A stretch of DNA of 64,000 nt, from positions 8,666-72,665 of the IMG/VR virus record IMGVR_UViG_3300025322_000015. One strand, written 5' to 3'. This document shows, piece after piece, positions 1-17,230 of the stretch. The notes beneath the pieces are model-generated. The model had not been told where the DNA came from. It did not search any database and saw only the letters and a list, made by a program, of their open reading frames with translations. Position numbers and translations under genes: made by a program. Each line of letters opens with the position of its first letter. Within the stretch, counting starts at the first letter, position 1. Source of the DNA: a virus.

Positions 1-102
1 CTGCTGCTGGTTGAGTGCGACGATTTTATTCAGATCACCGGTGAAATCTTCACCAGCCGTCTCCGAATACATGAATTCCGCAGGCACACGAAAGATTGCC
101 AT
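1..102 (-). CDS. 5' part of a probable capsid decoration/cement protein (DUF2190-like), running off the window edge
   Basis: Not in ORF track. ATG at 102 with GGAG upstream; MAIFRVPAEFMYSETAGEDFTGDLNKIVALNQQQ; follows the scaffold gene. Confidence 0.45.
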   Translation of the reverse strand, partial: MAIFRVPAEFMYSETAGEDFTGDLNKIVALNQQQ

Positions 103-172
103 TTCCGTTTTCTCCAAATCTTCAGTAAGGAATCAAGGTCGGGGGCTGAGATTCTACACCCAGCCCTCTCGA

Positions 173-1423
173 CTAGTTGGCGTCGGACTCACGATACGCA
201 GCGAACTCGTCCGGGTATTCCGTGCGCGCCTTGGTCATCGCAGCGGCGTGGCCGAGACTGTCACGCTTTTGGATTTCACGCACCTTGCCCATGAACGGAT
301 GCGAAGCACCCTTCCGCAGGCCCGACTGCCGGCCGATGTCTTCGCCGCCACCATCACCGAGACGAGTGAACGCCGATTTGATGGCACCCTCGCCGGCCGC
401 CAGCATCTTCACGATGGAAGCCTGAACATCTTCGGAAAGACTCTCGATCCCCTTCAGGACGTGGGCCTTCTCGATATCGGTGCCGGGCAGGTTCGTGTAA
501 GCAGCCTTGGCCACCTTCTCGTATTCGCCCATCTGGCGAGCAGCCTTCTCGGTAGCGGCCGACTTCACCGCCGACTCGATTTCCTCGGACTGCGCCTTCA
601 GGATAGCGAACATCTCGTCGCCGACCGAAGACTTCCGAATCGTCTGGCCCTTGACCGTCAGGGTCTCGTCGTCGGCAGCCTTGCCCATCTTCTTCTTGCG
701 ATCGCCGGCCGACAAACCGCGGAAAGCCTTCTGCTCCTCGCGGCCCAGGCTGGACATGTAAGCCTTTTCCTGGTCGTTCATCGAGGCCTTAGCGGTCTCC
801 ACCTCGAGCGAAGTGGTGAGCTCCTCGACCTTAGCAGTCAGGGATTCGACCTGAGTCGTCAGTTCAGCAGCCACACCAGCATCCGTAGAAGCCTTCGTGA
901 GATCCTCGAGCTTCTTCTCCAGATCAGAAATCTGAACCTTCATCTGCTCGGTGGTCAACACCTTCGCCATATCCTCAATCTCCTCAGTTGATTTACCCAA
1001 AGCTGACATCATTACCATGTCGGCTTCGCTCCACATCCGTCTGATAACGGACATGAAATCTTCTACCGTGTTCCTAGCCATGGTAAGTTTAGTTTCCGGA
1101 GGAGTAACAGGATCTCCGGCAATCGATCTGAGCGACGTTTCCATTGCATTGATAATGGGCCCAACGTGCTCAAGCGCTTCGTAATACTGCTCGCATCGCA
1201 TCGTCTCGGAAAGAACAGTCGAGAACGGAACGGCGCCATCCATCGGATCAATATATCGTTTTGTAAGGGCTCCAATATCGAGTTTCGTCATATCAACATC
1301 TCCATCCGCACTTTTGGCAATGCGCATGAGTGCGCCCTGTTGGGCCGGAGTATCAACAGCACTGATTTCGCCGATCTCAAAAGCGCGCATAATCTTCTGT
1401 TCTTTGTTCTTACCCTTACTCAT
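173..1423 (-). CDS. head scaffolding / maturation-associated protein
   Basis: N-terminal EISAVDTPAQQGA motif typical of head maturation proteins, long coiled coil, position between protease and capsid genes. Confidence 0.6.
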   Translation of the reverse strand: MSKGKNKEQKIMRAFEIGEISAVDTPAQQGALMRIAKSADGDVDMTKLDIGALTKRYIDPMDGAVPFSTVLSETMRCEQYYEALEHVGPIINAMETSLRSIAGDPVTPPETKLTMARNTVEDFMSVIRRMWSEADMVMMSALGKSTEEIEDMAKVLTTEQMKVQISDLEKKLEDLTKASTDAGVAAELTTQVESLTAKVEELTTSLEVETAKASMNDQEKAYMSSLGREEQKAFRGLSAGDRKKKMGKAADDETLTVKGQTIRKSSVGDEMFAILKAQSEEIESAVKSAATEKAARQMGEYEKVAKAAYTNLPGTDIEKAHVLKGIESLSEDVQASIVKMLAAGEGAIKSAFTRLGDGGGEDIGRQSGLRKGASHPFMGKVREIQKRDSLGHAAAMTKARTEYPDEFAAYRESDAN

Positions 1424-2592
1424 GCGCCTACCTCTTCATCAAGTAACCGGCGACCGCCAATACTAAACCCGGTGTACGTCCCGTTCTTAAACTTCTCGAG
1501 GATGTCAGGCCGGTCTACTTTCATGCCGATCATCAATCCTGTAGTTGGGGAAGCAATACCCATCGCCTTCGCAATATCTGTTGTCAAGGGAAATGCGAAG
1601 ATTACTTCTCCGGCACGTTCTACTGACTCCGCATCATTTCCCCGATAGCGATGCATGTGTCCACCGATGCGGGATTTCTGCATGTAGTTGGCCGAAGCGA
1701 CGAGCATCGAATCCTCAGGAATGTGATCGCCCTGGACGTCAAAATACTCCTTGCCGCGAATCTTCGAGATGATTGCCCAACCGAAGACGATACCGAGTTC
1801 TTCGTTGACTTCCTCGACCTTGGCAACGTGGAACACCTTCTCGGTGATCGAATCGTGCCAATCATCTTTTACAACGTTGAAGCGCTCAGGACCGAAGAGC
1901 AGCACACCTGTAAAGGGATGCACCTTGGTAAGATCAACGTCACCGGCATCCCAGGATATCGTCACGTGCGGGGTGTATTGGAAGTGATCCCAGGTCGCAC
2001 CAACGGAGCGCAGATAATCCCAGCGCTCGTTCAACTCATTAGATTTGAATTGCAGAACGACAGCACCACCATCACCCAACGCGACAACTTCCCGCCCAGC
2101 TGTATCCTCAGCAGCAAGAGTAGAAGTCACGGAAGCGGGCCACTCAAGCGGAGCGTGCGAGTACGCGATGGTTACGTGAAGGTCTCCAGGCTGTAGCACT
2201 GTCTTGAATCCCTGTGCCTTCGCCCACTTAATAAACTCATCGGAATTGATTAAACGACGACTGACATACATCGAACGTTCAGCTGAACGTTTCTCAATCC
2301 CAGGACCATGAGCTTCGCATACAGCACCAAGCCGTACAGCAGCATTATGTATTGATTGGATGTCTGTAAGATCGTTACGGGAATTCCGCGCACCAATCTT
2401 GGCAATCCACCGGTCATCGTCACCCCTCTCCCAGTTTTCCTTGACCGCCGCCCATGCCGATTGCTTGGCAACGGGTTCGGATGCTCCGGATTCTATTTGA
2501 GAGTTTGCGACTTCTCTGAATACAGTCTGTGCTGCCTCGGGGAGAGCTGATCTCACCGACTCAGGAAGGTCAGCGTTCGATTGCCATGGCAT
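1420..2592 (-). CDS. ChaB-like + Acb1-like 2H phosphoesterase + XkdF-like prohead serine protease fusion
   Basis: MPWQSNADLPESVRSALP (ChaB); LHVTIAYS and PHVTISW (two HxT motifs); GIVFGWA...DVQGDHI...GHMH...TYTGFSIGG (XkdF). Start taken at ATG 2592; ORF is open to 2745. Confidence 0.85.
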   Translation of the reverse strand: MPWQSNADLPESVRSALPEAAQTVFREVANSQIESGASEPVAKQSAWAAVKENWERGDDDRWIAKIGARNSRNDLTDIQSIHNAAVRLGAVCEAHGPGIEKRSAERSMYVSRRLINSDEFIKWAKAQGFKTVLQPGDLHVTIAYSHAPLEWPASVTSTLAAEDTAGREVVALGDGGAVVLQFKSNELNERWDYLRSVGATWDHFQYTPHVTISWDAGDVDLTKVHPFTGVLLFGPERFNVVKDDWHDSITEKVFHVAKVEEVNEELGIVFGWAIISKIRGKEYFDVQGDHIPEDSMLVASANYMQKSRIGGHMHRYRGNDAESVERAGEVIFAFPLTTDIAKAMGIASPTTGLMIGMKVDRPDILEKFKNGTYTGFSIGGRRLLDEEVGA

Positions 2593-2933
2593 ATGTGCTG
2601 GGGAGCTACGGAGAGCGCTGGCAGCCACCGTAGTGCGGTAGGGGCCGGTCCTCGTAGGACGACAAAAGTAGCATACCCCTTTACGTGACGCAATATAGGA
2701 AAATTCGACGAAACATGCGAATGGCTCCGAAATCCATGGAGCCATTCATTCTCGATAGATTGTTATGAAGTCTTTAGCATTGCACGGCTCTCGGCGAGCA
2801 GCGCCTCTATAGTTTTCCTCCGAGCTTCGTCGTCGTAACGAATGATATCAAACTCCCGTTCGCTGTCATCCCAGACGAATCTACTCACTACTTTCTTCTG
2901 TGCAACCTTCTTTGTTCTTGCCATCATCTCCAC

Positions 2934-4997
2934 CTATGGTAGTAGTTCGAGAACTACTGCATTCGCTTTAATTTCTCGAACGATAAACTTGGAACCTCTA
3001 TCAAGAAGTATTTCGAATTCGGTTTTGTTGGATGTCAACTTTTCCATGGAGATCGCTCTAGAGCCCTTAGGAAGAAGAATCTCGACAACAAAACCGCTGC
3101 CGTGTATCCAATTCGCCGCAAAGCTCCTGCTCATGCTAGTGCTTAACACAGCTTGATCTATAAGCACTGTTTGCCCAATTTGCAAGCTCGCAAAGGTGCG
3201 TTTCCACCTACTGCCCTTCATGCCGCGGTAGACGATGACGTCCTCAGCGAGAACGGCTTTTGCAAAAGCACTGTCAAGCTCAGCTATCATCCTGTCGGCA
3301 CTACGCATCGTATCAGCATAACCAAGGAATGGAGCGTCACCGTACCGCAACCGCTTCACTACCTGTTTATTGATTATTTCATAACCGTAACCAGAAGTGT
3401 AGTGCTTTAGCGTATCCATTTCGGCTAGTGTTAATTTTGCCGTGAAACCTTCTTTATACAAATCGTCTAAAAGTTCACGCATCTCCATTGTTTTCAAATT
3501 ACTGATAAAATCTTCTGGATTTTTCCCAGTACCTTTCGGAGGTTTCGTAACTGTTGTAGGCACACCATATTCATACTTAGCAGCCTGTACAACATCTTCA
3601 CCGGCGATAGTCTTAGTTGATGTCGACGTGATGCCACGGTTCTTTGCAGCTTGTCGAACAACCTCAGTATACTTCTTTGCCGCTTTCAATTCAGCAAGTT
3701 CTAAAGCCTCCGCCGTCTTCAAGGCCGCGCTGAGTATCTTGTCTGCTTCAGCAATTTGAGCAGCTTCTACATTCTTTAGAACATCAGCCACCTGCGAGTT
3801 CAGCTGATTGAATGCTCCTCGTGCTGCATCATTATCAGCAAAGGTGACAAAGCCATCAGCGTAGTCAGTATCGTACGAGGTTTTAAGACTCGTGTATATT
3901 GGCGGAGGGGCAGGTTTTGGCGTAACAACAATCGGGCGTTGTAACGCTGTACTCTGACCCGGTGGAAGTATTTTCGTGAGCGTAGTACAGCGGCATTGAA
4001 TAGTCTCCGCCGCTGGTGCTGATCTATCTCCAGGATACATCAATTTCGCACCAGATACGCTAACGAAATGTTCTTCAGCACCGCGCTCTTGTTTGTTTAG
4101 AAAGAAGTGTGTCTGACGCTCACGACCATCTACATTCGTACGCCAGGTGCGGCGGATGCGGCCCATCTCCAAATCAACTTTAGTAGCCGTCTGCATCATC
4201 GCTTGATGTCGTGCCACATTGGTCGTACTCAGCATCTCCGTACGCGCGATAGTTTCCGCGCGCATAGACAACATCCGTTCCTGGTAGCGACCCACCATCC
4301 TATCGATTTGAGAAGTAGATAATTGAACACCTCGATCGATTGCACGAGATACAGAGGAATCAAATCGACGATCCCGAAGAGTACGATCCAGCGCTTCCGA
4401 ACTTCCACTCTGTAGAAGGCTACGATAGTTGGAGACTGCTCCCATCTGGCGTTGTGTCAAGCCAATCTGATCACGAAACAACCTTGAGGCCTCGATGGGA
4501 CTCATACCTTCTTTCAACGCACGTGCGAGGACAGTACGAATTGCTTTCCTTTGCGCATCTACTATCTCACGAATGAATTCAAGAAGTGATTGACGCATCA
4601 AGCGTGCAGCATCAGCACTACCAGGATCGAACGATAGATTGACTGTCGGGCTAACTTCTATCTTCTTGACTTGCGTGATATCCAATTCTTTAATCAGCCA
4701 GCGCGTCTCGAAGTTTCCTGCGTTCTCGAAGACGGTAGGAAGAACCTCTGAAAAGTCTTCTACAAGATCGTCGGTGACGGATAAGCACTGCACAAGCCTG
4801 TTGGCGGCGTACATGTCACGGAACTTGCCGACCACATCATCTGACTTACAGCCCTCCAGAAATGTATTGAAGGCTGCGCGAATCAGAGTCTCTTGACCGG
4901 TCTCGAATGTAACGATACGTCGCACATCGGGAGGTAAGGCCTTACCTAGAACGGCGTGCTTGCACTGCACGATTCGAGACTGCGGAATAAACTGCAT
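2934..4997 (-). CDS. MuF (gpF/SPP1 gp7-like) minor head protein fused to a C-terminal VIP2-like ADP-ribosyltransferase
   Basis: ETIARTE...RTWRT..DGRER.TH...LMYPGD...ETIQCRC (MuF); VYRG, LSTS, TEFEILL (R-S-E ART motifs). Confidence 0.88.
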   Translation of the reverse strand: MQFIPQSRIVQCKHAVLGKALPPDVRRIVTFETGQETLIRAAFNTFLEGCKSDDVVGKFRDMYAANRLVQCLSVTDDLVEDFSEVLPTVFENAGNFETRWLIKELDITQVKKIEVSPTVNLSFDPGSADAARLMRQSLLEFIREIVDAQRKAIRTVLARALKEGMSPIEASRLFRDQIGLTQRQMGAVSNYRSLLQSGSSEALDRTLRDRRFDSSVSRAIDRGVQLSTSQIDRMVGRYQERMLSMRAETIARTEMLSTTNVARHQAMMQTATKVDLEMGRIRRTWRTNVDGRERQTHFFLNKQERGAEEHFVSVSGAKLMYPGDRSAPAAETIQCRCTTLTKILPPGQSTALQRPIVVTPKPAPPPIYTSLKTSYDTDYADGFVTFADNDAARGAFNQLNSQVADVLKNVEAAQIAEADKILSAALKTAEALELAELKAAKKYTEVVRQAAKNRGITSTSTKTIAGEDVVQAAKYEYGVPTTVTKPPKGTGKNPEDFISNLKTMEMRELLDDLYKEGFTAKLTLAEMDTLKHYTSGYGYEIINKQVVKRLRYGDAPFLGYADTMRSADRMIAELDSAFAKAVLAEDVIVYRGMKGSRWKRTFASLQIGQTVLIDQAVLSTSMSRSFAANWIHGSGFVVEILLPKGSRAISMEKLTSNKTEFEILLDRGSKFIVREIKANAVVLELLP

Positions 4998-5552
4998 CTA
5001 ACCCTCCAACCACTCAACAGTAGGGGAACCTAAAAGAGTGGCTGTCCAACCACTCATGCTCCGTACTCGATCCCTGAACTCTGATTCTTTAGCTGCGATC
5101 CAATGCTTCTGATATTTGGAAGCCTCTGTCCACGGCAGACCCCGCTTGTGAGCGTGGTAATGGGGCATCGCCGGGTCGATAGGCACGCCGCACAAAACGA
5201 CCGCTGTCGCGCCAGCTCGCAAGGCTGCGAACGCTGCCAGCATGCCGGACGATCCCCCAACCGCGTTCACGGTCCGCGTTCCCTTTGGAGCCGCCCGCGT
5301 TGGGCCGCCCTTCCCTGCCCAATATGTGCCTGCTGGATCTAATCCACGCGCCGCTCGCTCCCTAGACCACTTGCCCAACTGATCCGAATGATATGAAACC
5401 CAGTGATCTATTTTTCCTGGGTAGTCGATACCGATGTCGTTGACGACAACCACCATGTCAGGCATACACAGATCCTGGGCTGACGCAAGGTCAGCCCAGA
5501 CGCACTTAGCACCTCCGAGAACGAAGGCTATAACCCTAGCTGAGGGAGCCAC
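4998..5552 (-). CDS. putative GT-D/Maf-like glycosyltransferase-related protein
   Basis: VLGGA...VVVVND...GGSSGMLA...AGATAVVLCGVPID pattern; position in the GT cluster. Confidence 0.5.
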   Translation of the reverse strand: MAPSARVIAFVLGGAKCVWADLASAQDLCMPDMVVVVNDIGIDYPGKIDHWVSYHSDQLGKWSRERAARGLDPAGTYWAGKGGPTRAAPKGTRTVNAVGGSSGMLAAFAALRAGATAVVLCGVPIDPAMPHYHAHKRGLPWTEASKYQKHWIAAKESEFRDRVRSMSGWTATLLGSPTVEWLEG

Positions 5553-6318
5553 CGCGATTCGCCCACGAGTTTAGTACACGATGGTAGTCATCGTAGAATT
5601 CAGTATTCTCACGGGCGAGGATATCAGGACTGCCGAGCGTCCAGTGAATCAAGTTCAATGGCTCAGAGCCGATTGCAAGCTCGCTCACGGTAACAAGGTG
5701 GTTCCACGTCGGCGGCAGCTCGCCGATCTCGTCATCCTGTAGCCAGCAGAAGCGATGTAAGTCCCGGCCAGGAAGAGTGTTGACCATTTCAACGGTCAGC
5801 TTCTCGTTCGCCGGATGCTCGCAGTTGAACAGCATCACCGAAGACCAGTTCTTCCTTGGGTAGACCGTCTGCACCTCACCGCTCTTCTTCTTGGTCTCCA
5901 CAGGAACGTGATTATGCTTTACGCACATCACAGCTTTGGAGGAATCGGCGAGTGCGAAGACGTCGGCCGGATCGGCCAGGAACATCGTATCGCAGTCAGC
6001 AAACAATGCCCAACCTTCCTTTTGGATGACCGGAACAAGGAAGCGGGAGTTGGCGAACTCCGAAGACATTGGAGCCTCGCTGATGCAGTCCCACAACTTG
6101 CCCTCGCTGCTCACAGACGTCTTGCGTGTATACAACCCCTGCCGGCGAAGCGTGTCGAGAACCAGGCCTCGGATCTCGATACTCTCACGCATGTGGCCGA
6201 CCGCCGACTTCACGCACACGACGAAGTTATTAGTCTCACGAGAGTCGAACCCAATAAAAATGCTACGCGTAGGTGACAACGTAATCTCCTGACTTTTCCC
6301 AAACAAGTTTATAACCAA
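5536..6318 (-). CDS. glycosyltransferase (GT-A, GT8-like)
   Basis: IFIGFDSRE, SEFANSRFLVP, ALFADCD (DxD), YPRKNWSSVMLFN; exact start uncertain. Confidence 0.75.
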   Translation of the reverse strand: MVINLFGKSQEITLSPTRSIFIGFDSRETNNFVVCVKSAVGHMRESIEIRGLVLDTLRRQGLYTRKTSVSSEGKLWDCISEAPMSSEFANSRFLVPVIQKEGWALFADCDTMFLADPADVFALADSSKAVMCVKHNHVPVETKKKSGEVQTVYPRKNWSSVMLFNCEHPANEKLTVEMVNTLPGRDLHRFCWLQDDEIGELPPTWNHLVTVSELAIGSEPLNLIHWTLGSPDILARENTEFYDDYHRVLNSWANRGGSLS

Positions 6319-6934
6319 GTGCGATCAGATACTCCAGGGCTGCCAAACGTCTGATGTTGAATCGTTCGGCATTCCCAGGTTTCTGCTCGAGTATAATGAC
6401 AGGCTTGTCTTCTTGTATTGTTCTTTTTGCTCCTTGTACTACAAATAATTCCCAGCCCTCTACATCGATCTTGAGGAGATCGATCTTGCGACCTAGAGGG
6501 AAGTTGTCCAACGCGTACGTGCGCGTAAAACTAGCGCCTTGCGCAGGCTTATCGACAACATGGGCGTTGCCGCTGTTGCCTTGAACATACGCGATACTGA
6601 TATCGTCGTTCGTATGCGACAGTGCCATATGGTAGCATATCGCATTATCGATATCATTGCAGTTGCGATTCCAACACTCGTAAAGCGCGAGGTGAGGCTC
6701 GAATGCTACGACTTCCTCGAACATCGTAGAGAGCACATGCGACCACAGTCCAACATGGGCCCCGACGTCGACCGCGAGGCCGCGTGCAGACTCGGGAACG
6801 AACCCCACAGCAGCCTGAAGCTTCTTCAGCTGATACGTCCCTCTCTCATTGAGCATCGGGCTGCTCTCGAGGTGATGCTGGAAGTGCGTATCGTCGTCGG
6901 GGAACCACATCCCCTTAATTTCTTTCATCTCCAA
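6263..6934 (-). CDS. FkbM-family SAM methyltransferase
   Basis: VDVGAHVGLW, VAFEP, LLKIDVEGWE. Confidence 0.9.
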   Translation of the reverse strand: MEMKEIKGMWFPDDDTHFQHHLESSPMLNERGTYQLKKLQAAVGFVPESARGLAVDVGAHVGLWSHVLSTMFEEVVAFEPHLALYECWNRNCNDIDNAICYHMALSHTNDDISIAYVQGNSGNAHVVDKPAQGASFTRTYALDNFPLGRKIDLLKIDVEGWELFVVQGAKRTIQEDKPVIILEQKPGNAERFNIRRLAALEYLIALGYKLVWEKSGDYVVTYA

Positions 6935-7716
6935 TAAGGCTCCCGTCTCTCATTCCTGACTTCTACTTTTGACGTCCTGCCGATCTTCTTCCGAGCGCCC
7001 TTCGCATGATCAAGCCGAGCGGCAAGCTCACACCGAACGAATGGATGATGGTAGCGACTGGCATCACCCGATAGGCTGTGGGGATCAGTCATCCAACCCT
7101 CAGCGATTCCCCTACGAACGATCTGCTGAAAGATGTAAGAATCGTGAGTCTCATCCTCCTCAAAAATCTTTCCAGATTCATATATCGTCCGCAACTCCGA
7201 CATGAATCGCACATGCTCAGGGCGCCAACACTTGAACATCATAAAGCCGCATTCAGGATAACCACGATTCCTATGCAACCATGCGAGATAGGTGTCAGAT
7301 CGAAATAGATTGTAGAGCCATTCACAATCGACGTTGTCATGCGCCAAGGTATCGGCATCGATCATGATCAGCAGATCTTCTCCTACGTTTGAAGCTACGT
7401 CTGTCAAGGCTGCGACCTTGTGTCCGAACTTCAAACAATCTCGGCGGAAGTCGTACTCTCGCTTTTCTCTATTCCTCCTTCTGTCACGACCAACAGCATC
7501 AGGGACAGCAGAATACTTCTCTTTGAACTTTGTATACCAGTCCGGAATCTGCCGATATACAACATTGTCGATGACGGGAAGCGTGTTCCGAGGTATGTCC
7601 TCGCTGTAGAAGTAGAGTTTAATCTCCTTCGCCCAATAACGCTGGAAGGTCTTCAACATGCGATGGCCGTATTCGTCGTATCCTCTCTTACTCGTCGTCG
7701 TAACAAGTCGGATCAT
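6925..7716 (-). CDS. glycosyltransferase (GT-A, DxD)
   Basis: KFGHKVAAL, LIMIDADT, YPECGFMMF, HDSYIF, LDHAKG; start taken at MIRLVTT. Confidence 0.7.
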   Translation of the reverse strand: MIRLVTTTSKRGYDEYGHRMLKTFQRYWAKEIKLYFYSEDIPRNTLPVIDNVVYRQIPDWYTKFKEKYSAVPDAVGRDRRRNREKREYDFRRDCLKFGHKVAALTDVASNVGEDLLIMIDADTLAHDNVDCEWLYNLFRSDTYLAWLHRNRGYPECGFMMFKCWRPEHVRFMSELRTIYESGKIFEEDETHDSYIFQQIVRRGIAEGWMTDPHSLSGDASRYHHPFVRCELAARLDHAKGARKKIGRTSKVEVRNERREPYWR

Positions 7717-8227
7717 CGTTAACCTCGTAGTCCGCGCGGATGATAAAGTTCTTGCGATTGTACTTTTTAAGTACATCGTTCCACCACCGAGGTGTACGGA
7801 CCGTCAGGTGTACGTTGACACCGTCATTGAACGACTTCCTCGCCGGCCGGCAGCAGATCGCGAAATACGCAAACTTAGTCGCGTATTGGCAAACGTCTGC
7901 TAAAACTTCTTCGACGTTGTCGTGCGCAATGTGTTCCATCACATCTGTGCAGATAGCTCCGTCGAATCTACCTGTAGGTTTATTCTTGAGTTGTATGACA
8001 CCGACGTCGTAGCATACAGGAAGGATACCGCCCCAGGCTTCATGTACACGAGTCGCAAGATACTGATAGCCTTTCCCGCTTCCGTAATCAAGAAGGGTCT
8101 TGGCTCCGGTATCGCGCACCAGGTCAGTAATATTCTGAACTGAGACTGGTTTTAGAGCACCACTGAACCACTTCGGATGCTCTTGGTGAAGTTCCCTATA
8201 ACGCTTTTCGTATTTGAACGCACCCAT
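7688..8227 (-). CDS. class I SAM-dependent methyltransferase
   Basis: LLDYGSGKG, DGAICTDVMEHI. Confidence 0.85.
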   Translation of the reverse strand: MGAFKYEKRYRELHQEHPKWFSGALKPVSVQNITDLVRDTGAKTLLDYGSGKGYQYLATRVHEAWGGILPVCYDVGVIQLKNKPTGRFDGAICTDVMEHIAHDNVEEVLADVCQYATKFAYFAICCRPARKSFNDGVNVHLTVRTPRWWNDVLKKYNRKNFIIRADYEVNDDPTCYDDE

Positions 8228-9059
8228 TCAACGTACTCCAGAATTTCCCGTCGTTGATTTCGTCAGTACTCCATTGGCAATACGCCAAATCGTTCAGTAT
8301 AGCGTTAACTTCTTCTGCACTTGCCTCCTTTGGTGAAATTACGTCTTCCAGTGTCCGCGATGATATTCCAGCAGTGACAGCATCGCCGAGACAGATTGCA
8401 GGAATGCCGGCAGTTATCGCCTCCATGACAGCATTGCTGCCATAGGTAACCATCGCATGCGCGCCACGAAGATCATCGAGAATATTGTATTCCGTCGAGA
8501 AATCACTGCCAGGAAGTTTCTCAGCGTGGTGCCAGGATTTCTTCGGACGGTACAAAACCTTACGGTCGGTAATCTTCGCAAGCCGATCAACAACATCTTG
8601 CCAATACGGCGTGGGATGTTCGAGGTGGTGAAACATATGATACTTCAAGCTGGATCCCGCGATCAGCACGTGACCCTTCTTTGTCTTCGGACGCCAGCCT
8701 TTGAAGCACCAACCTTCCGCTTCCCTACGATCAGAAGGTGAGTTCAACTTGCCGAGGTACTTCGTGGGTTGGTGGCCTCCATAAGAAATCTTCCACCAAT
8801 TCTTCTCACGGTTGTAGGGCTTGTCGAAGTAGATGTACGGAACGCCCGCCTTGTCGCAGTTGCCGGAAAGGAACACCTGCTTCACGCCGATGAACCCGAC
8901 GACATCGAACTGCGTAACATCTTCGATATAGCCAAGACAATGCACCTCCCAGCCGTGCATCTCCGCGCCGCGTTTGAAAGCCTGGCCTAAGGCGTATTCT
9001 AATTCTTTCCAACCACCACGCTCGGGTCGCTTCTCGGGAACCTGGAAACCTATCTTCAT
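8196..9059 (-). CDS. GT-B / capsule-synthesis (KpsS/KpsC-like) glycosyltransferase paralog 3
   Basis: VLYRPK, MVTYGSNAVMEAITAGIP, LAYCQW; ATGA overlap at the start. Confidence 0.6.
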   Translation of the reverse strand: MKIGFQVPEKRPERGGWKELEYALGQAFKRGAEMHGWEVHCLGYIEDVTQFDVVGFIGVKQVFLSGNCDKAGVPYIYFDKPYNREKNWWKISYGGHQPTKYLGKLNSPSDRREAEGWCFKGWRPKTKKGHVLIAGSSLKYHMFHHLEHPTPYWQDVVDRLAKITDRKVLYRPKKSWHHAEKLPGSDFSTEYNILDDLRGAHAMVTYGSNAVMEAITAGIPAICLGDAVTAGISSRTLEDVISPKEASAEEVNAILNDLAYCQWSTDEINDGKFWSTLNGCVQIRKAL

Positions 9060-9889
9060 ATCGTCAATACCCCCTTGATGTAATCCCAACACTCACCGCT
9101 GCGCATCTCGTTAGGCGTCCATTGCGCGTAAGCCGTGTCATACAATAGTTGCATTTTATCTTCAGTAGTGGGATGTGTTGGGTTAAGTAAAGTATCCTCA
9201 CTGAAATCAGGATTGGAGAGTAAGGAACCAACGCCCTTCTTCGCATAAAAAGGGATACCGGCGACAAGACAATCAACCGCTACATTGCTGTGATGACTGA
9301 CAACGAAGTAGGCCTCGCGCAATGCAGCGTCAATAGTCCCAATCTTCGTTGTTCTGAGATTCTGCTTATTCGGTTTTTGTCTGACGTAGACTGATCCTTG
9401 CGGAAATATCTTCTCAACGGCGTCCTTCGTTTGTTGTTCCCATTGTCCATCTTTGTATCCATGGGTCCAAGCTGCTTTTCCCGACATCCCAACAATCATG
9501 ATGACATTGCTGGTATGATCCCACTCGTCCCTGACGTTCACCTTCAGGCGATTAAATCGATCAGGGGGACAATTCCTACGCATGCGTACAGCTGTATCCC
9601 AATCGTCGATGCCTAGCCGATAATGACCCTCTGTACCTCGATCCCAGTAACCAAGGTCGAGAAAGACAAAATGCTTTCCCGCTGCCTTGTATTTGGAAAA
9701 TAGGTGAGTGGTCAGCTCATTGATCCAACCATACGCGACAGCAACGTCGGCAATTACATTGCCATCAAACTTTTCTGGAGTAAGACAATTAATCCCGTGG
9801 CGACGAAAACCTGTGCGGAATGCATTGCCTAGAAGATTTGGCTTGTCCCGGCCCCAGCCATTGTTTATACCGTATACAGCTACCTTCAC
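9056..9889 (-). CDS. GT-B / capsule-synthesis (KpsS/KpsC-like) glycosyltransferase paralog 2
   Basis: YVRQKP, VVSHHSNVAVDCLVAGIP, TAYAQW. Confidence 0.6.
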   Translation of the reverse strand: MKVAVYGINNGWGRDKPNLLGNAFRTGFRRHGINCLTPEKFDGNVIADVAVAYGWINELTTHLFSKYKAAGKHFVFLDLGYWDRGTEGHYRLGIDDWDTAVRMRRNCPPDRFNRLKVNVRDEWDHTSNVIMIVGMSGKAAWTHGYKDGQWEQQTKDAVEKIFPQGSVYVRQKPNKQNLRTTKIGTIDAALREAYFVVSHHSNVAVDCLVAGIPFYAKKGVGSLLSNPDFSEDTLLNPTHPTTEDKMQLLYDTAYAQWTPNEMRSGECWDYIKGVLTI

Positions 9890-10704
9890 AAAACTCTCCG
9901 TTTGTGGATTTCCAAAAGCCGTGCCATCGGCTCACCTGTTAAAACCTCATCCAGGGTCCATTGCGCCCAGGCGAGGTTACTCAACATCGCCACACGGTCA
10001 CCCATCAGAGTGTGCGCGCTAACATCCATCGAGATGTTTTTGATCCCGAAGCACGCCGCTGGTCCAGCAATCCATCTATCAAATTCGTAGAAGACCGGGA
10101 TACCAGAAACCAGAGCCTTCGTCGCTGCACTACTTCCCCAAGTCACCGAACACCAAGCATGCTGGAAATCTTCAGAGAGGGGTGTTGTCTCCTTACTTGT
10201 TCCTGGGTGTCTACGAACATGCACCATAGAAGATTTGGTTATCCTCCTGATGCGCGGGACAACACTTCCTTCCCAGTCACGTGGCATCGCGACACCAGGC
10301 AACCCAACACCGCGCTGCGGTAGCACGAGGATATGAGTCCCTGATTCCTTCCAGGGTTGCAGCTCGATATCCAGCTTCTCGTATCTGGAGTAATCAGGAC
10401 CTGGCCAGACACCTGCGCCGTTATGACGATTTAACGCCATCGCGAAAGACTTCTTAGACTTCCGCATGTTGAGATAAGAGTTCTCAACAACAATAACAGC
10501 GGCGCCGTGATCCTCGAACAGCGTCGCTTGTTTGTCTCCTGTACCATATCTGTTCCAGATCAATACGACGTCATCTGGAGTAGGTCGGCGACCTTTACTG
10601 AATGGTTGGATCTCAACTTGATAGCCGAGCTTTTGCATTCCCGCTATAAACGCGTCGTGGCGGTATACAGGATTGGGGCGGATTAGGCATAGAGCTGTTT
10701 TCAT
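9886..10704 (-). CDS. GT-B / capsule-synthesis (KpsS/KpsC-like) glycosyltransferase paralog 1
   Basis: HVRRHP, SVTWGSSAATKALVSGIP, LAWAQW. Confidence 0.6.
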   Translation of the reverse strand: MKTALCLIRPNPVYRHDAFIAGMQKLGYQVEIQPFSKGRRPTPDDVVLIWNRYGTGDKQATLFEDHGAAVIVVENSYLNMRKSKKSFAMALNRHNGAGVWPGPDYSRYEKLDIELQPWKESGTHILVLPQRGVGLPGVAMPRDWEGSVVPRIRRITKSSMVHVRRHPGTSKETTPLSEDFQHAWCSVTWGSSAATKALVSGIPVFYEFDRWIAGPAACFGIKNISMDVSAHTLMGDRVAMLSNLAWAQWTLDEVLTGEPMARLLEIHKRRVL

Positions 10705-10722
10705 TGCTTGGTGCTCAAAGTA

Positions 10723-11277
10723 TTACAGGGATTCGCTGTATCCAAAATCATCAGCCGTCACCGACTCATTATCGGTACCGGAAGAAATAACCCCGAAGGA
10801 AGTTGACGTCCCTGCAAGGTAGTCACGAATCAACTCCATGATGTTGAACGGGAAGCGAGAAGGCTCACCGCCAGCTCCGCGAAAGAACGTAATCGCGGCT
10901 GATCCGGCCCGCAGCGATTGGATGCTCTGCTCGGTATTCTGAGAAGTTACCGAAGCTGTATCATCGACCAAGGCCGCGGCTAGCTCGATGCACGCGTTGA
11001 TGATAGCCTGAGGAACTACAGTATCCTCGACACCATCGATACCTGTACCCGTACGCGGCCACGCGAGGGGCTGAGCAGCATCAGTCTTCTCGCCTAGCCA
11101 GTTCTGCCTATCGAGTGTGCGGGTAGCTGTCACCAGGAATCTGGCTTTGTCATCGGGATCAGTGAGCGCCCTCCACGAAGCTGCGGTCGCCGATGCGTCC
11201 AGGTACTCATCCGCCTGCTCGACCGTAGCGTAGGTATCGTAAAACGCCCCACTGCCGATTTGTACGAATTCAGTCAT
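10723..11277 (-). CDS. DnaT-like head-tail adaptor/connector protein
   Basis: YATVEQADEYL...LVTATRTLD...WLGEK...QPLAWPR signature. Confidence 0.75.
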   Translation of the reverse strand: MTEFVQIGSGAFYDTYATVEQADEYLDASATAASWRALTDPDDKARFLVTATRTLDRQNWLGEKTDAAQPLAWPRTGTGIDGVEDTVVPQAIINACIELAAALVDDTASVTSQNTEQSIQSLRAGSAAITFFRGAGGEPSRFPFNIMELIRDYLAGTSTSFGVISSGTDNESVTADDFGYSESL

Positions 11278-11339
11278 TGTCCTATCTCCTTCTTTGCGCT
11301 ATACAGGACTAATCAACCACAGGGTAAAAGGACAAACCA

Positions 11340-11636
11340 ATGAAACATTTTAAAGTCTCAAAAATCTTCCGGGTTATCGAACCGGGTGAGTTCATCGAAG
11401 TTGGTACTGTCTTTGCCGTCGGGGAAGATGGCATATACATTTACACCTTCTGGAAGAACGTACCAAAACTCACTGAAGCTGCCGTCGCCATCTGGCCGAA
11501 GAAAGATAAAGACGGGAAAATAGAACTCTTCAGGGACTACTGGAAGTATGCTGTTGATGCTGAAGACTCACTGCATTACGGAAAACGCTACACCGAAGTC
11601 TTCAAACTGGTAACCGAAACTCTATCCGTATCCTAG
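11340..11636 (+). CDS. hypothetical protein, the only plausible plus-strand gene
   Basis: AAAGGA before ATG, protein-like composition, fills an otherwise empty gap. Confidence 0.55.
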   Translation: MKHFKVSKIFRVIEPGEFIEVGTVFAVGEDGIYIYTFWKNVPKLTEAAVAIWPKKDKDGKIELFRDYWKYAVDAEDSLHYGKRYTEVFKLVTETLSVS

Positions 11637-12054
11637 GCTCTCTGAGGATCCGGGCCTTGACAGCTTGGATCCTTACTCCTTCTTTCGCGCGCATGCGCAG
11701 CTCAGCTTTCCGTTTCACAGTCTGCAAATACAACTTCCTCTGCAATCTTCTCCACTCGATATCGGCCAAGTAGTGCTTTGGCAATCTCCCAGTCACGCGT
11801 CGTACGAAACTCATGTACGACAGCTCACGCAGGGTTACTTCAATCACCCCTTGCGCTATCGCCAGCTTCCTCTTCGATATCGCGATGTCATAATGCGGAC
11901 CGCTATGTGTGTTCTGGAACCACTTCCGCTTGATCCCAATCGCATCAGCCATCTCATGCAGTTCGTCAAGGTTGTCGGCGATCATATGCGACATCTTCAT
12001 CTTGCCGAACTGACCCATCGGACGTAGATACATGTCGTCGACGTAGACAGTCAT
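11602..12054 (-). CDS. DUF4031-like protein
   Basis: MTVYVDD, SHMIAD..DELHEMA..IG..RKWFQ, PHYDI. Confidence 0.8.
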   Translation of the reverse strand: MTVYVDDMYLRPMGQFGKMKMSHMIADNLDELHEMADAIGIKRKWFQNTHSGPHYDIAISKRKLAIAQGVIEVTLRELSYMSFVRRVTGRLPKHYLADIEWRRLQRKLYLQTVKRKAELRMRAKEGVRIQAVKARILREPRIRIEFRLPV

Positions 12055-12425
12055 GGAAACATCCAGATCGCAAGTCCGTTGATGATGATATGCAAAGTAT
12101 TGTCAACGATGATTAACAACCAGACTGCCAAGAACGGTGGAGTGTCTTTCGGGAAACCATGCGATCCTACATCTCTGGGAAATCCATTCTTGGCCCAAAC
12201 CACCCAGGCTGCTAAACCAAATCGATCAATAAAGAAATGCGTAATTGAGATGATCAACAACGCATAGATGTTTTGCGTGATGAGCGTAAACGGTATTGTG
12301 TAGGTAACGGCATGAATTCCTGCCGCGATGCTACTTTGTCTTTTAGAAGTTGCCATCCAATGTGATTGTAGTATGTAATCACCCACAAGGTGTGCGACAA
12401 TCTGATCAGCTGTTATCAATGGCAT
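12051..12425 (-). CDS. DUF3307-like membrane protein
   Basis: AHLVGDYILQ..WMA..K, IHAVTY, THFFID. Confidence 0.8.
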   Translation of the reverse strand: MPLITADQIVAHLVGDYILQSHWMATSKRQSSIAAGIHAVTYTIPFTLITQNIYALLIISITHFFIDRFGLAAWVVWAKNGFPRDVGSHGFPKDTPPFLAVWLLIIVDNTLHIIINGLAIWMFP

Positions 12426-12670
12426 CGTGCCCTACGCGTTCTTTGTCCAATTGGATAAGTAGTAGAAGATTCACCAGTCTCGCTGTTGTAGACAGTGAAG
12501 TAAGCTACGTGTCCCCAAGCCATTCGCTGTTGCCACACTAGCACTTCTACGTCCTTGCTGCTGTCACTCAGGTGTCGAGTTTGGACAAGAAGATCGCCAT
12601 ACTTGACTTTCGGATGCGGATGCTTGTCACTCGCGAATCCAGTAACGACCCATTTCCATTTTCCAGCCAT
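12416..12670 (-). CDS. hypothetical protein
   Basis: Tightly packed ORF in operon. Confidence 0.55.
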   Translation of the reverse strand: MAGKWKWVVTGFASDKHPHPKVKYGDLLVQTRHLSDSSKDVEVLVWQQRMAWGHVAYFTVYNSETGESSTTYPIGQRTRRARCH

Positions 12671-13671
12671 CAGAGATCTCGAATGATTGCAGCTTCCAGA
12701 ACACCCTCGACGTAGTAGACACAGACGACGGCCCCATCCGATCGAGCGAACAGTTGAGGATACCCAAAGTCTCGACAGCCAACCAACTTAATGACGTGCG
12801 TCCGCCAGGTCTGTCCTTTGGTGTAGTCCGAGACCGCTACCATCATATTTCCAGTAGACCGATTACCGTACGCAGCAATCAACCTACCCTGATGCGAAAG
12901 CAATGCGGGAGGGTTACCGTTATGGTCCCCAGTCACAGCTACTATCTCAGTCCGCGTGCGCCACGAGACTCCTTGATTGTCGGAGACGTATGCTGAGATC
13001 CAGCTCTGCTTATTCAATCTACGTCGGCAAAGAACGATAATCTCGTTATCAAGAGCGGCGGCGGCGGGCATCACCTGCCTACTACCATCTCCATAATCAG
13101 GCAACTCCGATATCTCGAAGAACGGCGTGTATTTTCCACGTTGTGCGACAACTACACGATCGCTACCAAACACACCTTTATGCGCGTGCGAGAGAAAGAC
13201 GAGATCACCCAGCTGGCAGGTTCGAGTAGTACAGATACGCTTTCCGCCCTTGGTCAAATCTAAATCTTCGATAAGGAAAGGACCAGCCCAGTTGTATCCT
13301 TTGTCATTCGAGTAGTAGAAAGCTCCCCGAGGATCACAGGCCTCGCCACCGTGATCGTAGAATCCACAAAACCGTAGAATTGAACTATCAGGTTCTGCTT
13401 CTCCTAAAGATTGATAGACGTGTCTGGGATCCGCACCTTCAAAATCAACATCAGGTAAGGTGCTGATCCAACTCTCTCCACCGTCCTTACTGCGAAAGAG
13501 AAACTTCTGAAGAATACCAGTAACCTTGTGCATACTCTTTATAGTAGTATCACGCATGCCGACAGCAGCACCGAAAAGTAATTCATCTCCCCATTGCCAA
13601 TGCCCGTGGTTCGCCGGCCAGCCAAAGAACAAGGTCGACGAATTGGTAATGCGAACAAAATCAACTTTCAT
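12670..13671 (-). CDS. sialidase-like BNR/Asp-box beta-propeller
   Basis: Asp boxes RSKDGGESW, YSNDKGYNW, VSDNQGVSW; C-terminal DFGYP..VCVYY. Confidence 0.8.
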   Translation of the reverse strand: MKVDFVRITNSSTLFFGWPANHGHWQWGDELLFGAAVGMRDTTIKSMHKVTGILQKFLFRSKDGGESWISTLPDVDFEGADPRHVYQSLGEAEPDSSILRFCGFYDHGGEACDPRGAFYYSNDKGYNWAGPFLIEDLDLTKGGKRICTTRTCQLGDLVFLSHAHKGVFGSDRVVVAQRGKYTPFFEISELPDYGDGSRQVMPAAAALDNEIIVLCRRRLNKQSWISAYVSDNQGVSWRTRTEIVAVTGDHNGNPPALLSHQGRLIAAYGNRSTGNMMVAVSDYTKGQTWRTHVIKLVGCRDFGYPQLFARSDGAVVCVYYVEGVLEAAIIRDL

Positions 13672-13702
13672 AGTCTTTCTCCTGTGTGAGAAATCTTATT
13701 GC

Positions 13703-14041
13703 TTACTGGTCGATACCAGCAGCCCATAACGGTTTACATCCAGTTATATGTATGCCTGCATCATCCACACCGTCCGACCAGGGATTGATGCACAGCAAAT
13801 AAATGCCAACCCGAAGACCTTGATCCCAATTAGAATCGAAGTTGTTATCTTCCGCCGTCTCTTCGAGAAGAATATCACGCTCAATAATATCATCAGATCG
13901 TGCGAGGATATAACCTGTACCGTCCTCCGAAAGCGCAACAATGCACTGATCTTTTGCCAAGGTCAGCGATCCGTGTATTGACGGCAGGTCGTCTTCTACA
14001 GAAGCTGATACACCGTTTAGACAACTACAATGCTGGGTCAT
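13703..14041 (-). CDS. hypothetical protein
   Basis: Packed ORF. Confidence 0.5.
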   Translation of the reverse strand: MTQHCSCLNGVSASVEDDLPSIHGSLTLAKDQCIVALSEDGTGYILARSDDIIERDILLEETAEDNNFDSNWDQGLRVGIYLLCINPWSDGVDDAGIHITGCKPLWAAGIDQ

Positions 14042-14604
14042 TACACATCCTCCTCAAGTGAGCAATACAGCCAGTCATGTACTCGGATCCGTCCATAATG
14101 ACTGCGAGCCGCTGCGTATAAAATTATCGTTCCAACGGTAAATCCCATTCCGAAGGGAAGATGTATACCCATGAAGCAAATTGCGAGTAAGATGAAGTTA
14201 ACAAAGGTGATTACCGGAAATCGTACGTCTCCACGAATCTGTGTTGTTGATACGTTTGGAGTACGCGGAAATACAACTACTTCCCAGCGAGGATCTCGCC
14301 GAACCGAGTCTGCCCAATCATCGCCGACGAATAACACATCAAACTTGTGCCGCTCCCAAAGTGCAGAGATATCCGTATCGTGTACCTTCACAATTACATC
14401 TACACAGACAACTTCAGCGATACGTGCCGCACGATCGTGAACAGAGGATGACGTCTGTCTACCTTTTCGAGCAACAACCAACGCATCATCAATAATACCA
14501 ACGGTGAGATGCTTGCTTCGACTACTACACCTTTGTAGTAATTCAAGATGTCCGGTATGTAGCATACCAAACGTCCCCATCGTAAATCCACGTTCATATG
14601 TCAT
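14041..14604 (-). CDS. TagD-like cytidylyltransferase with a hydrophobic C-terminal extension
   Basis: GTFGMLHTGH (HxGH), FDVLFVGDDW, RTPNVSTTQIR, then a TM-like segment. Confidence 0.8.
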   Translation of the reverse strand: MTYERGFTMGTFGMLHTGHLELLQRCSSRSKHLTVGIIDDALVVARKGRQTSSSVHDRAARIAEVVCVDVIVKVHDTDISALWERHKFDVLFVGDDWADSVRRDPRWEVVVFPRTPNVSTTQIRGDVRFPVITFVNFILLAICFMGIHLPFGMGFTVGTIILYAAARSHYGRIRVHDWLYCSLEEDV

Positions 14605-14873
14605 CTCATGTTCTCCCGTCTCCCACCTTCGCCGCCGTGGCCGCCGATAGCTTTTGAATTCGATCCCAGAACGATAGCATGACCACCGGTACCACCTGAA
14701 CCCGTGATCGATCCCTTTCCGCCTGATCCCCCTTTGGCGAAGTTGCCCGGACCCACAGCAACGCTCCTACCGTCTTTGCCATCCTGAGACTTACAGCGCT
14801 TCGGGAAGACGAGGCTAAGGTAAGAGAATAGATTGCCGAACATGACACTCTCCTGTTGTATTGAGTAACACAT
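14601..14873 (-). CDS. small glycine-rich protein
   Basis: GGSGGKGSITGSGGTGG; start uncertain. Confidence 0.45.
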   Translation of the reverse strand: MCYSIQQESVMFGNLFSYLSLVFPKRCKSQDGKDGRSVAVGPGNFAKGGSGGKGSITGSGGTGGHAIVLGSNSKAIGGHGGEGGRRENMR

Positions 14874-15051
14874 CGCGATACACGCAGTACCTAAATCGAG
14901 AGTCGGCTAAGAGCTGGTTTGCTCTCCACGGCGACATTTCGAGTAATTGGAGCCTAGTAATATAAGGTTCGTTAGCCCAATCCCTCGAATCCAGCTTAAT
15001 CCGTTCTCTGTGAATCGCAATGAATTCCTTTTCAGCTTCTGTTAGCTTCAT
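14815..15051 (-). CDS. hypothetical protein
   Basis: Packed ORF. Confidence 0.5.
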   Translation of the reverse strand: MKLTEAEKEFIAIHRERIKLDSRDWANEPYITRLQLLEMSPWRANQLLADSRFRYCVYRDVLLNTTGECHVRQSILLP

Positions 15052-15052
15052 T

Positions 15053-15322
15053 CTATTTCCTTATGAAGCGGGTCCGCTCGGCTTTTCCGTCAAGCATAAC
15101 GAACTCGACATCGTAGTGGGGAATCGCTAACCCCCGCTTAACAACATCAAAGTCGGCATGCATCAGGTCCATGTGGAAGGATGAGTCACTGACCCTGTAC
15201 TCACATCGCAATACTGCACAGTCCTTTTGCGCAGCCATCAAGTCAGCAGGCCACCTCGGACCCACAACCTCGAGACGAACCTTACCAATCCGTTGTTCTG
15301 TATCTTGAGTAAACAACATCAA
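15053..15322 (-). CDS. hypothetical protein
   Basis: Packed ORF, ATGA overlap. Confidence 0.55.
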   Translation of the reverse strand: MMLFTQDTEQRIGKVRLEVVGPRWPADLMAAQKDCAVLRCEYRVSDSSFHMDLMHADFDVVKRGLAIPHYDVEFVMLDGKAERTRFIRK

Positions 15323-15501
15323 TTGCGATCCTTTGTTTTAGCAACACCTGTACGAATATACTCCTCGAATACGCGCGCACGCTCAACATACGCGTTTGTT
15401 GTCGTGCTCGTGGGCTGGTCACTCGTCACAGAGCAGAACAATGCTACTGCTCGAATGACAGGATCCATATCAGGATCTTCAGTGATAGGTTTATTCGCCA
15501 T
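15319..15501 (-). CDS. hypothetical protein
   Basis: Packed ORF. Confidence 0.5.
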   Translation of the reverse strand: MANKPITEDPDMDPVIRAVALFCSVTSDQPTSTTTNAYVERARVFEEYIRTGVAKTKDRN

Positions 15502-16102
15502 TTGTAGTATCCTTGATTAATGCTGCTGATTTAAACTTCTTGTGTTTATGCTTAGCACGTATTTTATCGATGTTATCCCAATTCCGAGTAAGGATGCGAT
15601 GCGTCTCTTCTTGTAGATCAACCTCATGCGTTGTTGCAAGTGCTGAAAGGCAGATCAGTACGTCGGCGCACTCCTCTGAGATCTTACCAAGGTCGGCGGG
15701 ACTCTTTCTCGCCTCCTTGCTATAGACAGCTTGAATTACTGAGATGATGGTAATGAGTGGAGCCTGGCACGCTGCCATCAACTCAGCAAACTCTTCCGCA
15801 AGACGAAGATAGCGCTCGTCTGCATTATCAGCAACCTCATTACCCATACACGTGCGCAACCAGTAGTTGGTGCGCTGTTGTATTTCATCGATGTTAGAAG
15901 GACCTAAGGGGGTCCACCACTTACCGTTGTAGTAATTCATCTCTCCATTTGTAATCCCCATCTGCTGTTCTGCTGTCAAGGGCATGCCCGGACATTCTTT
16001 TGCAAGAGTGATCTCACCTCCTTGGCAAACAGTACAGGAGGATAGACCTCCCTCGCAGATGTAACATCTTTCTTTATCGCACTTATGTAAAGTATGTTTC
16101 AT
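15491..16102 (-). CDS. MazG-like nucleotide pyrophosphohydrolase with a Cys-rich N-terminus
   Basis: RLAEEFAEL...EECADVLICL (EExxE/ExAD); CxxC clusters at the N-terminus. Confidence 0.7.
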   Translation of the reverse strand: MKHTLHKCDKERCYICEGGLSSCTVCQGGEITLAKECPGMPLTAEQQMGITNGEMNYYNGKWWTPLGPSNIDEIQQRTNYWLRTCMGNEVADNADERYLRLAEEFAELMAACQAPLITIISVIQAVYSKEARKSPADLGKISEECADVLICLSALATTHEVDLQEETHRILTRNWDNIDKIRAKHKHKKFKSAALIKDTTNGE

Positions 16103-16335
16103 TTTAAAGTTCTTTCAAATGCCCTAACTCGATGTTTAATCTCATTGTAGATGGCAGTACGCTCTTCTGCATTCGCGTACTCTAGTCTACGCCATTTGCC
16201 GTCTCGACTACAAACATACCAGAATCCATTTCCAGGATGGTAGGATGTCTCACCCGTAATCTCAACTACATCAAGGTCAAGGAAGTCCACGCCCAGGAAG
16301 ATAGGCTTCACCAATGATCCTTCCTCGCGTTTCAT
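16099..16335 (-). CDS. hypothetical protein
   Basis: ATGA overlap, AGGA upstream. Confidence 0.55.
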   Translation of the reverse strand: MKREEGSLVKPIFLGVDFLDLDVVEITGETSYHPGNGFWYVCSRDGKWRRLEYANAEERTAIYNEIKHRVRAFERTLK

Positions 16336-16359
16336 TCCTGATTCCTTTCATTCTCCCCT

Positions 16360-16476: not shown

Positions 16477-16479
16477 TAC

Positions 16480-17172: not shown

Positions 17173-17230
17173 GTTCCTATCCGATCTGCGGAGTTGCTAT
17201 TGCTTACACATATTACATATCGCTGCGGAA

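Follow-up and report, generated by a model that had tools for sequence, protein, structure and literature searches.

We analysed a 64,000-nucleotide stretch of viral DNA, hereafter the window, which comprises bases 8666–72665 of the 72.7-kb IMG/VR record IMGVR_UViG_3300025322_000015 (estimated completeness 69%). A gene on its minus strand fuses a ChaB domain, an Acb1-like 2H phosphodiesterase and an XkdF-type prohead protease within one polypeptide. Our analysis adds to this architecture that the protease fold appears to be divided between two genes, with the adjoining scaffold gene supplying the last strands. The explanation that we favour, and to which we give about an even chance of being correct, is that the protease, tethered to the scaffold, brings two passengers into the prohead, ChaB and the Acb1-like enzyme, the latter of which degrades cyclic-oligonucleotide immune signals.

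Gene model and domain architecture

The gene and its domains were assigned as follows.

1420–2592, minus strand: ChaB–Acb1(2H)–prohead protease fusion gene (protein P0001), 390 amino acids plus stop; open frame, three Pfam domains, 472 homologues.
2398–2568, minus strand: ChaB domain, residues 9–65 (PF06150, E 1.8e-13, 51.3 bits, cut-off 27).
1852–2274, minus strand: Acb1-family 2H phosphodiesterase, residues 107–247 (PF23474); catalytic H139/T141 (2170–2178) and H209/T211 (1960–1968), Y109, lid W245.
1423–1824, minus strand: XkdF-type prohead protease domain, residues 257–390; D285, H314 (1651–1653) and S377 (1462–1464), lacking the last strands of the fold.

The frame is free of stop codons across all 390 codons. 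Pfam placed the domains in the order ChaB (residues 9–65), Acb1 (107–247) and XkdF-type protease (257–381), each above its curated cut-off. A first-pass annotation of the window had described a single open reading frame (ORF) with ChaB-like, 2H (HVT...HVT) and XkdF-like domains in that order, which the Pfam matches bear out; both HVT motifs were verified (H139-V-T141 and H209-V-T211). Absent from that annotation was the point that the protease domain lacks part of its fold, which the next gene appears to supply. An AlphaFold model of the full protein, computed with 34 homologues as input, consisted of three well-folded domains with a mean predicted local distance difference test score (pLDDT) of 82, and the stretches of low order were residues 93–103, 246–254 and 381–390.

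Translation from an alternative start, ATG 2745, would give the 441-residue product that is the database gene call. This ATG sits within an 11-bp hairpin directly 3' of the stop codon of the preceding gene, and most of the other homologues in a 34-sequence alignment begin at the MPW/MPY equivalent of ATG 2592. For these two reasons the 441-residue model was rejected and ATG 2592 was taken as the better start.

The hairpin, which is GC-rich and spans ~2718–2751, belongs to a 170-nucleotide leader (2593–2762, minus strand) 5' of the fusion gene. When translated, this leader is ~90% identical to the matching N-terminal extension of homologue P0004, whose whole protein is 73% identical. Because the leader exceeds the protein in identity, the comparison suggests that it is more likely a conserved RNA or DNA element than coding sequence. 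No Rfam family matched in a scan of positions 1–6000, hairpin included.

The Acb1-like 2H domain

The 2H domain matched PF23474 over profile positions 2–143 of 144 with an E value of 7.7e-38 and 129.9 bits (cut-off 27); T4 Acb1 scored 202.7 bits on the same model. Generic 2',5'-RNA-ligase and LigT models reached 14–17 bits on this domain, compared to 130 for Acb1. The best Foldseek matches in the PDB were the Acb1 structures 7t26/7t27 (E 1.7e-8, target TM-score (TMt) 0.70–0.71), followed by phage BCSR5 phosphodiesterase PDE-9 and then by LigT, which ranked with other cyclic phosphodiesterases. In the classification of Doherty et al. (bioRxiv 10.1101/2025.08.21.671373), Acb1 and BCSR5 PDE-9 both fall in structural group 3, a broad-spectrum group. 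The earlier assignment of the domain as Acb1-like thus holds by both the PF23474 score and the fold match.

BLASTP aligned the domain with T4 Acb1 at 33% identity over 85 residues (E 5e-12). Residues of known function in Acb1 (PMC9117128) were mapped by MAFFT alignment rather than by structure. In this alignment the catalytic residues H44/T46 and H113/T115 of T4 Acb1 correspond to H139/T141 and H209/T211, and both Y12 and the lid residue W147 are kept, as Y109 and W245. F107 corresponds to H203, in a column that holds His or an aromatic residue throughout the family. The alignment runs through to the C-terminal end of T4 Acb1: the C-terminal lid KDDWHDSITEK pairs with the T4 C-terminus KLDWADDLK, which is a free end in T4 and is followed here by a linker. 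Among the 34 aligned homologues (36–79% identity overall; 42–79% for the set used for the catalytic residues), H139, T141 and H209 are invariant and residue 211 is Thr in 32 and Ser in two; R112, R167, R190 and E236 are likewise invariant. From these data we conclude that the 2H domain is a member of the Acb1 family by sequence and fold criteria, and that it is intact-looking and has kept its lid. Hydrolysis of cyclic oligonucleotides by this domain is likely, although not established.

The protease domain and its predicted completion by the scaffold gene

Residues 257–381 matched Peptidase_S78_2/XkdF (PF14550) with an E value of 1.9e-9 and 38 bits (cut-off 24). A model of the protease domain by itself had a pLDDT of 86.5, and its best structural alignment was with T4 gp21 (5jbl; Z 9.2, root mean square deviation 2.4 Å over 112 residues), with varicella-zoster virus protease next at 5.5. 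The top Foldseek match was human cytomegalovirus protease, a weak one (E 0.065). Profile comparison with HK97 gp4 by hhalign likewise gave a weak, N-terminal match (E 0.2), and to the extent that this partial match allows, the His/Ser spacing agrees with that of HK97 H65/S114. A PDB sequence search with the protease-domain profile returned chance matches to 5-enolpyruvylshikimate-3-phosphate synthase (E ~0.9). H314 and S377, the latter in the motif GFSIGG, are invariant in 52–55 sequences. All 34 aligned homologues have this domain at the C-terminus, as do the long forms.

The whole fold is not contained in this polypeptide, which stops 13 residues past Ser377; its homologues all end ~10–15 residues past the catalytic Ser. 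Two features of the downstream gene bear on where the missing strands are encoded.

173–1423, minus strand: scaffold-like protein, 416 amino acids, its ATG overlapping the TGA of the fusion gene (ATGA); coiled-coil-like, in PHROG families of unknown function.
1310–1402, minus strand: scaffold N-terminal docking peptide, residues 8–38 ('...IMRAFEIGEISAVDTPAQQGA...K'), the putative missing strands of the protease fold, assigned by 32-locus conservation, alignment with HK97 gp4 and predicted docking.

The 416-residue protein matched no Pfam family, and its N-terminus taken alone also gave no meaningful Pfam match. A peptide of the form RIMxxFxxxEISAVDxPAQxGAxxxIMKR opens the downstream gene in most of the ~60 IMG/VR loci that have a readable protease ORF and in two cultured phages. 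Residues E19, S21, V23, P26, A27, A31 and K37 of the scaffold peptide are invariant in a 32-locus alignment. The peptide is also present at L002:6366–6470 and L003:6371–6475, and the arrangement was found in cultured Rhizobium and Roseobacter phages. With HK97 gp4 as the single-chain comparator, an hhalign profile comparison aligned the peptide with gp4 residues 131–165, which form the strands after the catalytic Ser114; the match is short, with an E value of 5e-4 and a probability of 30%.

The spacing between the protease and scaffold genes varies among loci (−1, +2, +3, +4, +6, +13 to +26 and larger) and all three frames occur. A programmed frameshift or readthrough joining the two products was ruled out by these variable offsets and frames, from which we conclude that protease and scaffold are separate chains with no conserved recoding site.

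Complex prediction with protease residues 252–390 and scaffold residues 1–45 gave an interaction score (interaction prediction score from aligned errors, ipSAE) of 0.86, compared to 0.00 for the best control; as the halves of a split fold can score by their likeness to solved proteases, the model supports binding and does not demonstrate it. Of 80 solved complexes, 58 attained this ipSAE mark, as did 2 of 110 mismatched pairs. The runs had at least 79% of contacts in common, and the pLDDT of the partner was at least 55. In the predicted complex, protease residues 376–384 run antiparallel to scaffold residues 14–21, and S377 contacts I20/S21 of the scaffold. The conservation of the peptide, its alignment with gp4 and the modelled docking together support the view that the missing last strands are the first ~35 residues of the scaffold gene product.

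The ChaB domain and the linkers

The ChaB domain matched E. coli ChaB (1sg7) by sequence (E 1.8e-8) and by fold (TMt 0.70, 39% identity). To our knowledge, no function has been established for the ChaB family, and a search of the literature on XkdF and on ChaB yielded nothing useful. Two linker elements separate the domains.

2314–2397, minus strand: linker module of ~28 amino acids, residues 66–93 ('IGARNS...IHNAAVRLGAVCE'), followed by the floppy stretch 93–103.
1825–1851, minus strand: flexible linker SITEKVFHV, residues 248–256, with a candidate processing site after K252.

The predicted model shows the ~28-residue module as a helix, with modest confidence. Its pattern, K|xGARH(S/T/N)...Q.(I/V)H(D/N).A..LGA.C, is restricted to these protease polyproteins and is invariably preceded by Lys. 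Among the loci it occupies varying domain junctions (L005, L011–L013, L020, L021, L061, L064 and L067). The module may have a role in processing or targeting, or it may be a small helix that binds metal.

Around the second linker, residues 246–254 had a pLDDT below 50. E251 is kept in 28 and K252 in 27 of the 34 sequences, and T4 Acb1 terminates at the position aligned to this region (E251–K252). In some homologues other domains are inserted just past residues 248–256. Four homologues of 620–660 residues (P0046, P0087, P0092 and P0110) have extra segments exactly at the junction between the 2H and protease domains; in one the segment is a globular domain of unknown family, and in the other three it is a long hydrophobic segment rich in Ala and Val. 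This junction appears to be a hot spot for additional cargo.

Distribution of the fusion and of other passengers

A word-indexed search returned 472 relatives, the best 120 of which mostly combine Acb1 with XkdF, many of them also with ChaB. An exhaustive search of 1.84 billion representatives (50% identity clusters) gave 4073 matches at E ≤1e-3 and 379 at ≤1e-30. Of the best 150 representative clusters, at least 48 align in a single stretch (~103 to ~385) that spans both 2H domain and protease, and the same 2H domain was also located within proteins of 1000–2770 residues.

In the cultured-phage collection, tblastn found no triple fusion and no record covering at least 80% of the protein, and megablast with the first 12 kb of the window found no match to cultured phages. 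The individual parts did match by tblastn: the 2H part matched the C-termini of portal proteins in Rhizobium, Pseudomonas (phiPSA1 group) and Synechococcus phages, and the protease part matched genes annotated as 'DNA methyltransferase/prohead protease'.

Recognisable passengers on 55 IMG/VR relatives of the protease were Acb1 (16), ChaB (15), a ParB-like nuclease (2) and a VapB-like domain (2), a tally that is biased in that a ChaB motif was one of the two search patterns. In addition, one relative is extended at its C-terminus by a thioredoxin-reductase-like segment, and in many the N-terminus bears an extension of no recognised kind.

Genomic neighbourhood

On the minus strand the genes follow in the order 601-residue ORF, Mu-type portal, ~13 kb of transferase genes, MuF–ADP-ribosyltransferase (MuF-ART), 56-residue ORF, fusion gene, scaffold-like gene, small head protein, major capsid protein and tail genes. 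The fusion gene is therefore at the canonical location of a head-maturation protease. The same gene order was seen in cultured Rhizobium phage RHph_TM3_3_9, which has a ParB-like/protease fusion, and in Roseobacter phage RDJL Phi 1, which has a bare protease of 132 residues; the position of the scaffold-like gene is conserved in these Rhizobium and Roseobacter phages. The upstream genes were assigned as follows.

19947–21752, minus strand: 601-residue ORF, no Pfam family.
18427–19923, minus strand: Mu-type portal protein (PF06074, E 5.3e-14), upstream end of the head module.
2934–4997, minus strand: MuF head-morphogenesis protein fused to an exoenzyme-type ADP-ribosyltransferase (PF04233, E 8.7e-9; PF03496, E 3.8e-17; phrog_3517, head morphogenesis).

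MuF-ART is a second head-associated enzyme fusion and a near neighbour of the protease gene. The ~13-kb interval between portal and MuF (~5000–18400, minus strand) holds genes for FkbM-type and other methyltransferases, putative glycosyltransferases, a cytidylyltransferase, a BNR-repeat protein and a DnaT-like protein. Such an interruption of the head module is unusual and may have to do with sugar modification of the virion or of DNA. A tRNA scan found none, and promoter and terminator sites were no more numerous than in shuffled sequence.

In phage T4 (L084:1592–2411), acb1 (gene 57B, annotated as 'RNA ligase') adjoins ipI, which encodes an injected internal virion protein that blocks host defence; this may be coincidence.

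A proposed cargo-bearing head protease and its alternatives

The explanation that we favour would operate as follows. The N-terminal strands of the scaffold would complete and tether the protease by strand complementation, so that the protease is perhaps active only on the scaffold. Along with its ChaB and 2H passengers, the protease would then be carried by the assembly core or scaffold into the prohead, where it may cut the linkers, candidate sites being those after the conserved lysines K65, just after ChaB, and K252. Once cut free, the 2H enzyme and ChaB would be too large to exit the shell and would stay with the DNA, reaching the next host in the manner of the T4 internal proteins. Judging from its family membership, the enzyme would hydrolyse cyclic di- or trinucleotide signals of the type used by CBASS, the antiphage signalling system that is based on cyclic oligonucleotides. 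As part of the polyprotein not yet assembled, it could be active in the late cytoplasm, at the time when the protease can trigger CBASS, and again from the outset of the next infection. A general rule of loading cargo into the head is favoured because both the carriers (portal, MuF and protease) and the passengers vary.

Several observations weigh against this explanation. Domain identity, conservation, synteny and the predicted docking come directly from the analysis, and we infer all that lies beyond them, including the cleavage sites, packaging and ejection. An enzyme that is synthesised late as part of a protein that usually destroys itself might simply be degraded. The remaining points concern the 2H domain. 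W74 of T4 Acb1 corresponds to V170 and the adenine-contacting E141 to N239 in the MAFFT alignment, Glu being the commonest residue in the latter column family-wide, and the invariant R112, R167 and R190 have no described role in Acb1. As W74 and E141 lack counterparts here and three arginines are invariant, substrate choice may differ from that of Acb1. The subclade also lies nearer to portal-fused 2H domains (66 bits) than to proven Acb1 (33 bits), and PDB sequence matches ranked the C-terminus of the Pam3 portal (E 1.3e-17) ahead of Acb1 from phage FBB1 (E 2.3e-7). We found no assayed member of the head-protein-fused subclade, and for two of the structural groups into which viral 2H enzymes fall, none of 18 messengers tested was cleaved (10.1101/2025.08.21.671373).

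A function other than anti-CBASS is a serious rival, although we consider it unlikely. The 2H enzyme would in that case process RNA ends (2',3'-cyclic phosphate, LigT-like), act as an RNase or cleave 2'-5'-linked or other nucleotides, and would be delivered with the DNA against RNA-targeting or nucleotide-based defences, which is what was originally proposed for head-fused 2H domains (PMC5512222, section 20). The subclade-specific arginines, the substituted W74 and E141 positions, the inactive viral 2H groups and the appearance of LigT and other cyclic phosphodiesterases as the next fold matches all fit such a function. However, the margin of 130 bits for the Acb1 model over 14–17 for the 2',5'-RNA-ligase and LigT models, the rank of Acb1 as top fold match and the retention of the Acb1-specific lid Trp and N-terminal Tyr argue for an Acb1-type substrate. 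Another rival keeps the CBASS function and dispenses with the virion: the gene would be a dedicated fusion of one antidote to each protease trigger, acting in the late cytoplasm, with packaging irrelevant. The background to this idea is sound. Acb1 enzymes degrade CBASS signals (PMC9117128), CBASS escape mutations map to prohead protease genes (Richmond-Buccola et al. 2023, bioRxiv 10.1101/2023.05.21.541620), and the protease activity of T4 gp21 cleaves the activation loop of a nucleotidyltransferase resembling cGAS and DncV (CD-NTase) and suffices to activate CBASS (Hobbs and Kranzusch 2026, PMC12991175). The frequency of the 2H–protease fusion among the best clusters and the lead of Acb1 and ChaB among recognisable passengers also speak for it. 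On the other side, the nearest relatives of the 2H domain sit on the C-termini of portals, which are not known CBASS triggers, and 2H domains are fused to MuF as well (PMC5512222). Unrelated passengers ride on the same protease, the passenger tally carries the search bias noted above, and a diffusible signal needs no hydrolase beside the activator of its cyclase. We therefore think a dedicated antidote improbable. The first-pass annotation had made the related proposal that the anti-defence enzyme is produced and localised together with a likely trigger; this is compatible with the data, is weakened by the portal-fused relatives and the unrelated passengers, and gained no specific support. A variant that takes in the split fold is also doubtful: a protease complete only on the scaffold would keep free activity away from cytosolic CD-NTase sensors, and as each protease bears an Acb1-type antidote, trigger and antidote would have been selected as a unit.

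An artefact or a decaying gene, that is, an assembly or frame error or inactive relic passengers, is very improbable. In its favour, the protease is truncated relative to single-chain proteases, and the database gene call is over-extended at its 5' end. The truncation, however, is a split that is conserved together with its partner peptide, and the architecture persists at 36–79% identity in hundreds of clusters, with catalytic residues invariant in the 34 sequences. The identical fusion protein is present on independent contigs of ~100 kb and the architecture in hundreds of metagenomic proteins, from which we conclude that the fusion is not an assembly accident.

If the passenger of the cargo-bearing protease does degrade CBASS signals, many uncultivated phages mount an anti-CBASS enzyme on their capsid assembly machinery, which is what CBASS was recently shown to sense. 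The architecture would then be a natural system for asking whether counter-defence is pre-loaded in virions and whether it is coupled to the trigger. The split protease would also be a simple case of an enzyme completed by its assembly partner.

Comparison with known systems

The fusion is a member of a published class, the head-protein-fused 2H effectors, and is of a common design. Iyer, Burroughs, Anand, de Souza and Aravind (2017, PMC5512222) reported fusions of 2H domains to MuF or portal proteins, found assemblin-like peptidases to be invariably C-terminal in polyvalent proteins, and predicted that head-fused 2H domains might degrade defence nucleotides. Of the 75 viral 2H enzymes considered by Doherty et al. 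(2025, 10.1101/2025.08.21.671373), 13 have extra domains, proteases included. Natural Acb1–protease fusions go unmentioned by Hobbs and Kranzusch (PMC12991175), the 2H domain of the portal is not discussed in the Pam3 structure paper, and our literature search found no paper containing both 'Acb1' and 'XkdF'.

The present 2H domain resembles Acb1 (T4 gene 57B; Erwinia phage FBB1, 7t26/7t27; PF23474) in its 2H fold, HxT/HxT tetrad, N-terminal stacking Tyr, C-terminal lid Trp and 33% identity to T4 Acb1 over the core. Acb1 is a stand-alone protein of ~150 residues, whereas the 2H domain described here is internal to a late head-module polyprotein, lacks equivalents of W74 and E141, has three subclade-specific invariant arginines and is closer to portal-fused domains. 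With the polyvalent and head-fused effectors (PMC5512222; cyanophage Pam3 portal 2H domain, PDB 8hds) it has in common a 2H domain on a virion-assembly protein, a C-terminal assemblin-like peptidase and a nearby MuF-ART; it differs in that the carrier is the head protease itself, that ChaB is a second passenger and that the protease is split with the scaffold gene.

The protease has the assemblin fold of HK97 gp4 and T4 gp21 (S78/S77; XkdF-type PF14550), the conserved His and Ser, and a gene placed before the scaffold and capsid genes. In contrast to those proteases, its fold is spread over two genes, it carries N-terminal enzyme cargo, and a separate scaffold gives the final strands in place of a C-terminal capsid-targeting tail. 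A capsid-targeting sequence loads the T4 internal proteins (IPI and others) into the head; gp21 cuts them, and once injected they block host defence. By analogy, the proposed route would be the same, with entry into the prohead together with the core, trimming by the protease, travel with the DNA and action against immunity. The T4 proteins use a short leader peptide for this purpose, whereas here targeting would be achieved by fusion to the protease and docking on the scaffold.

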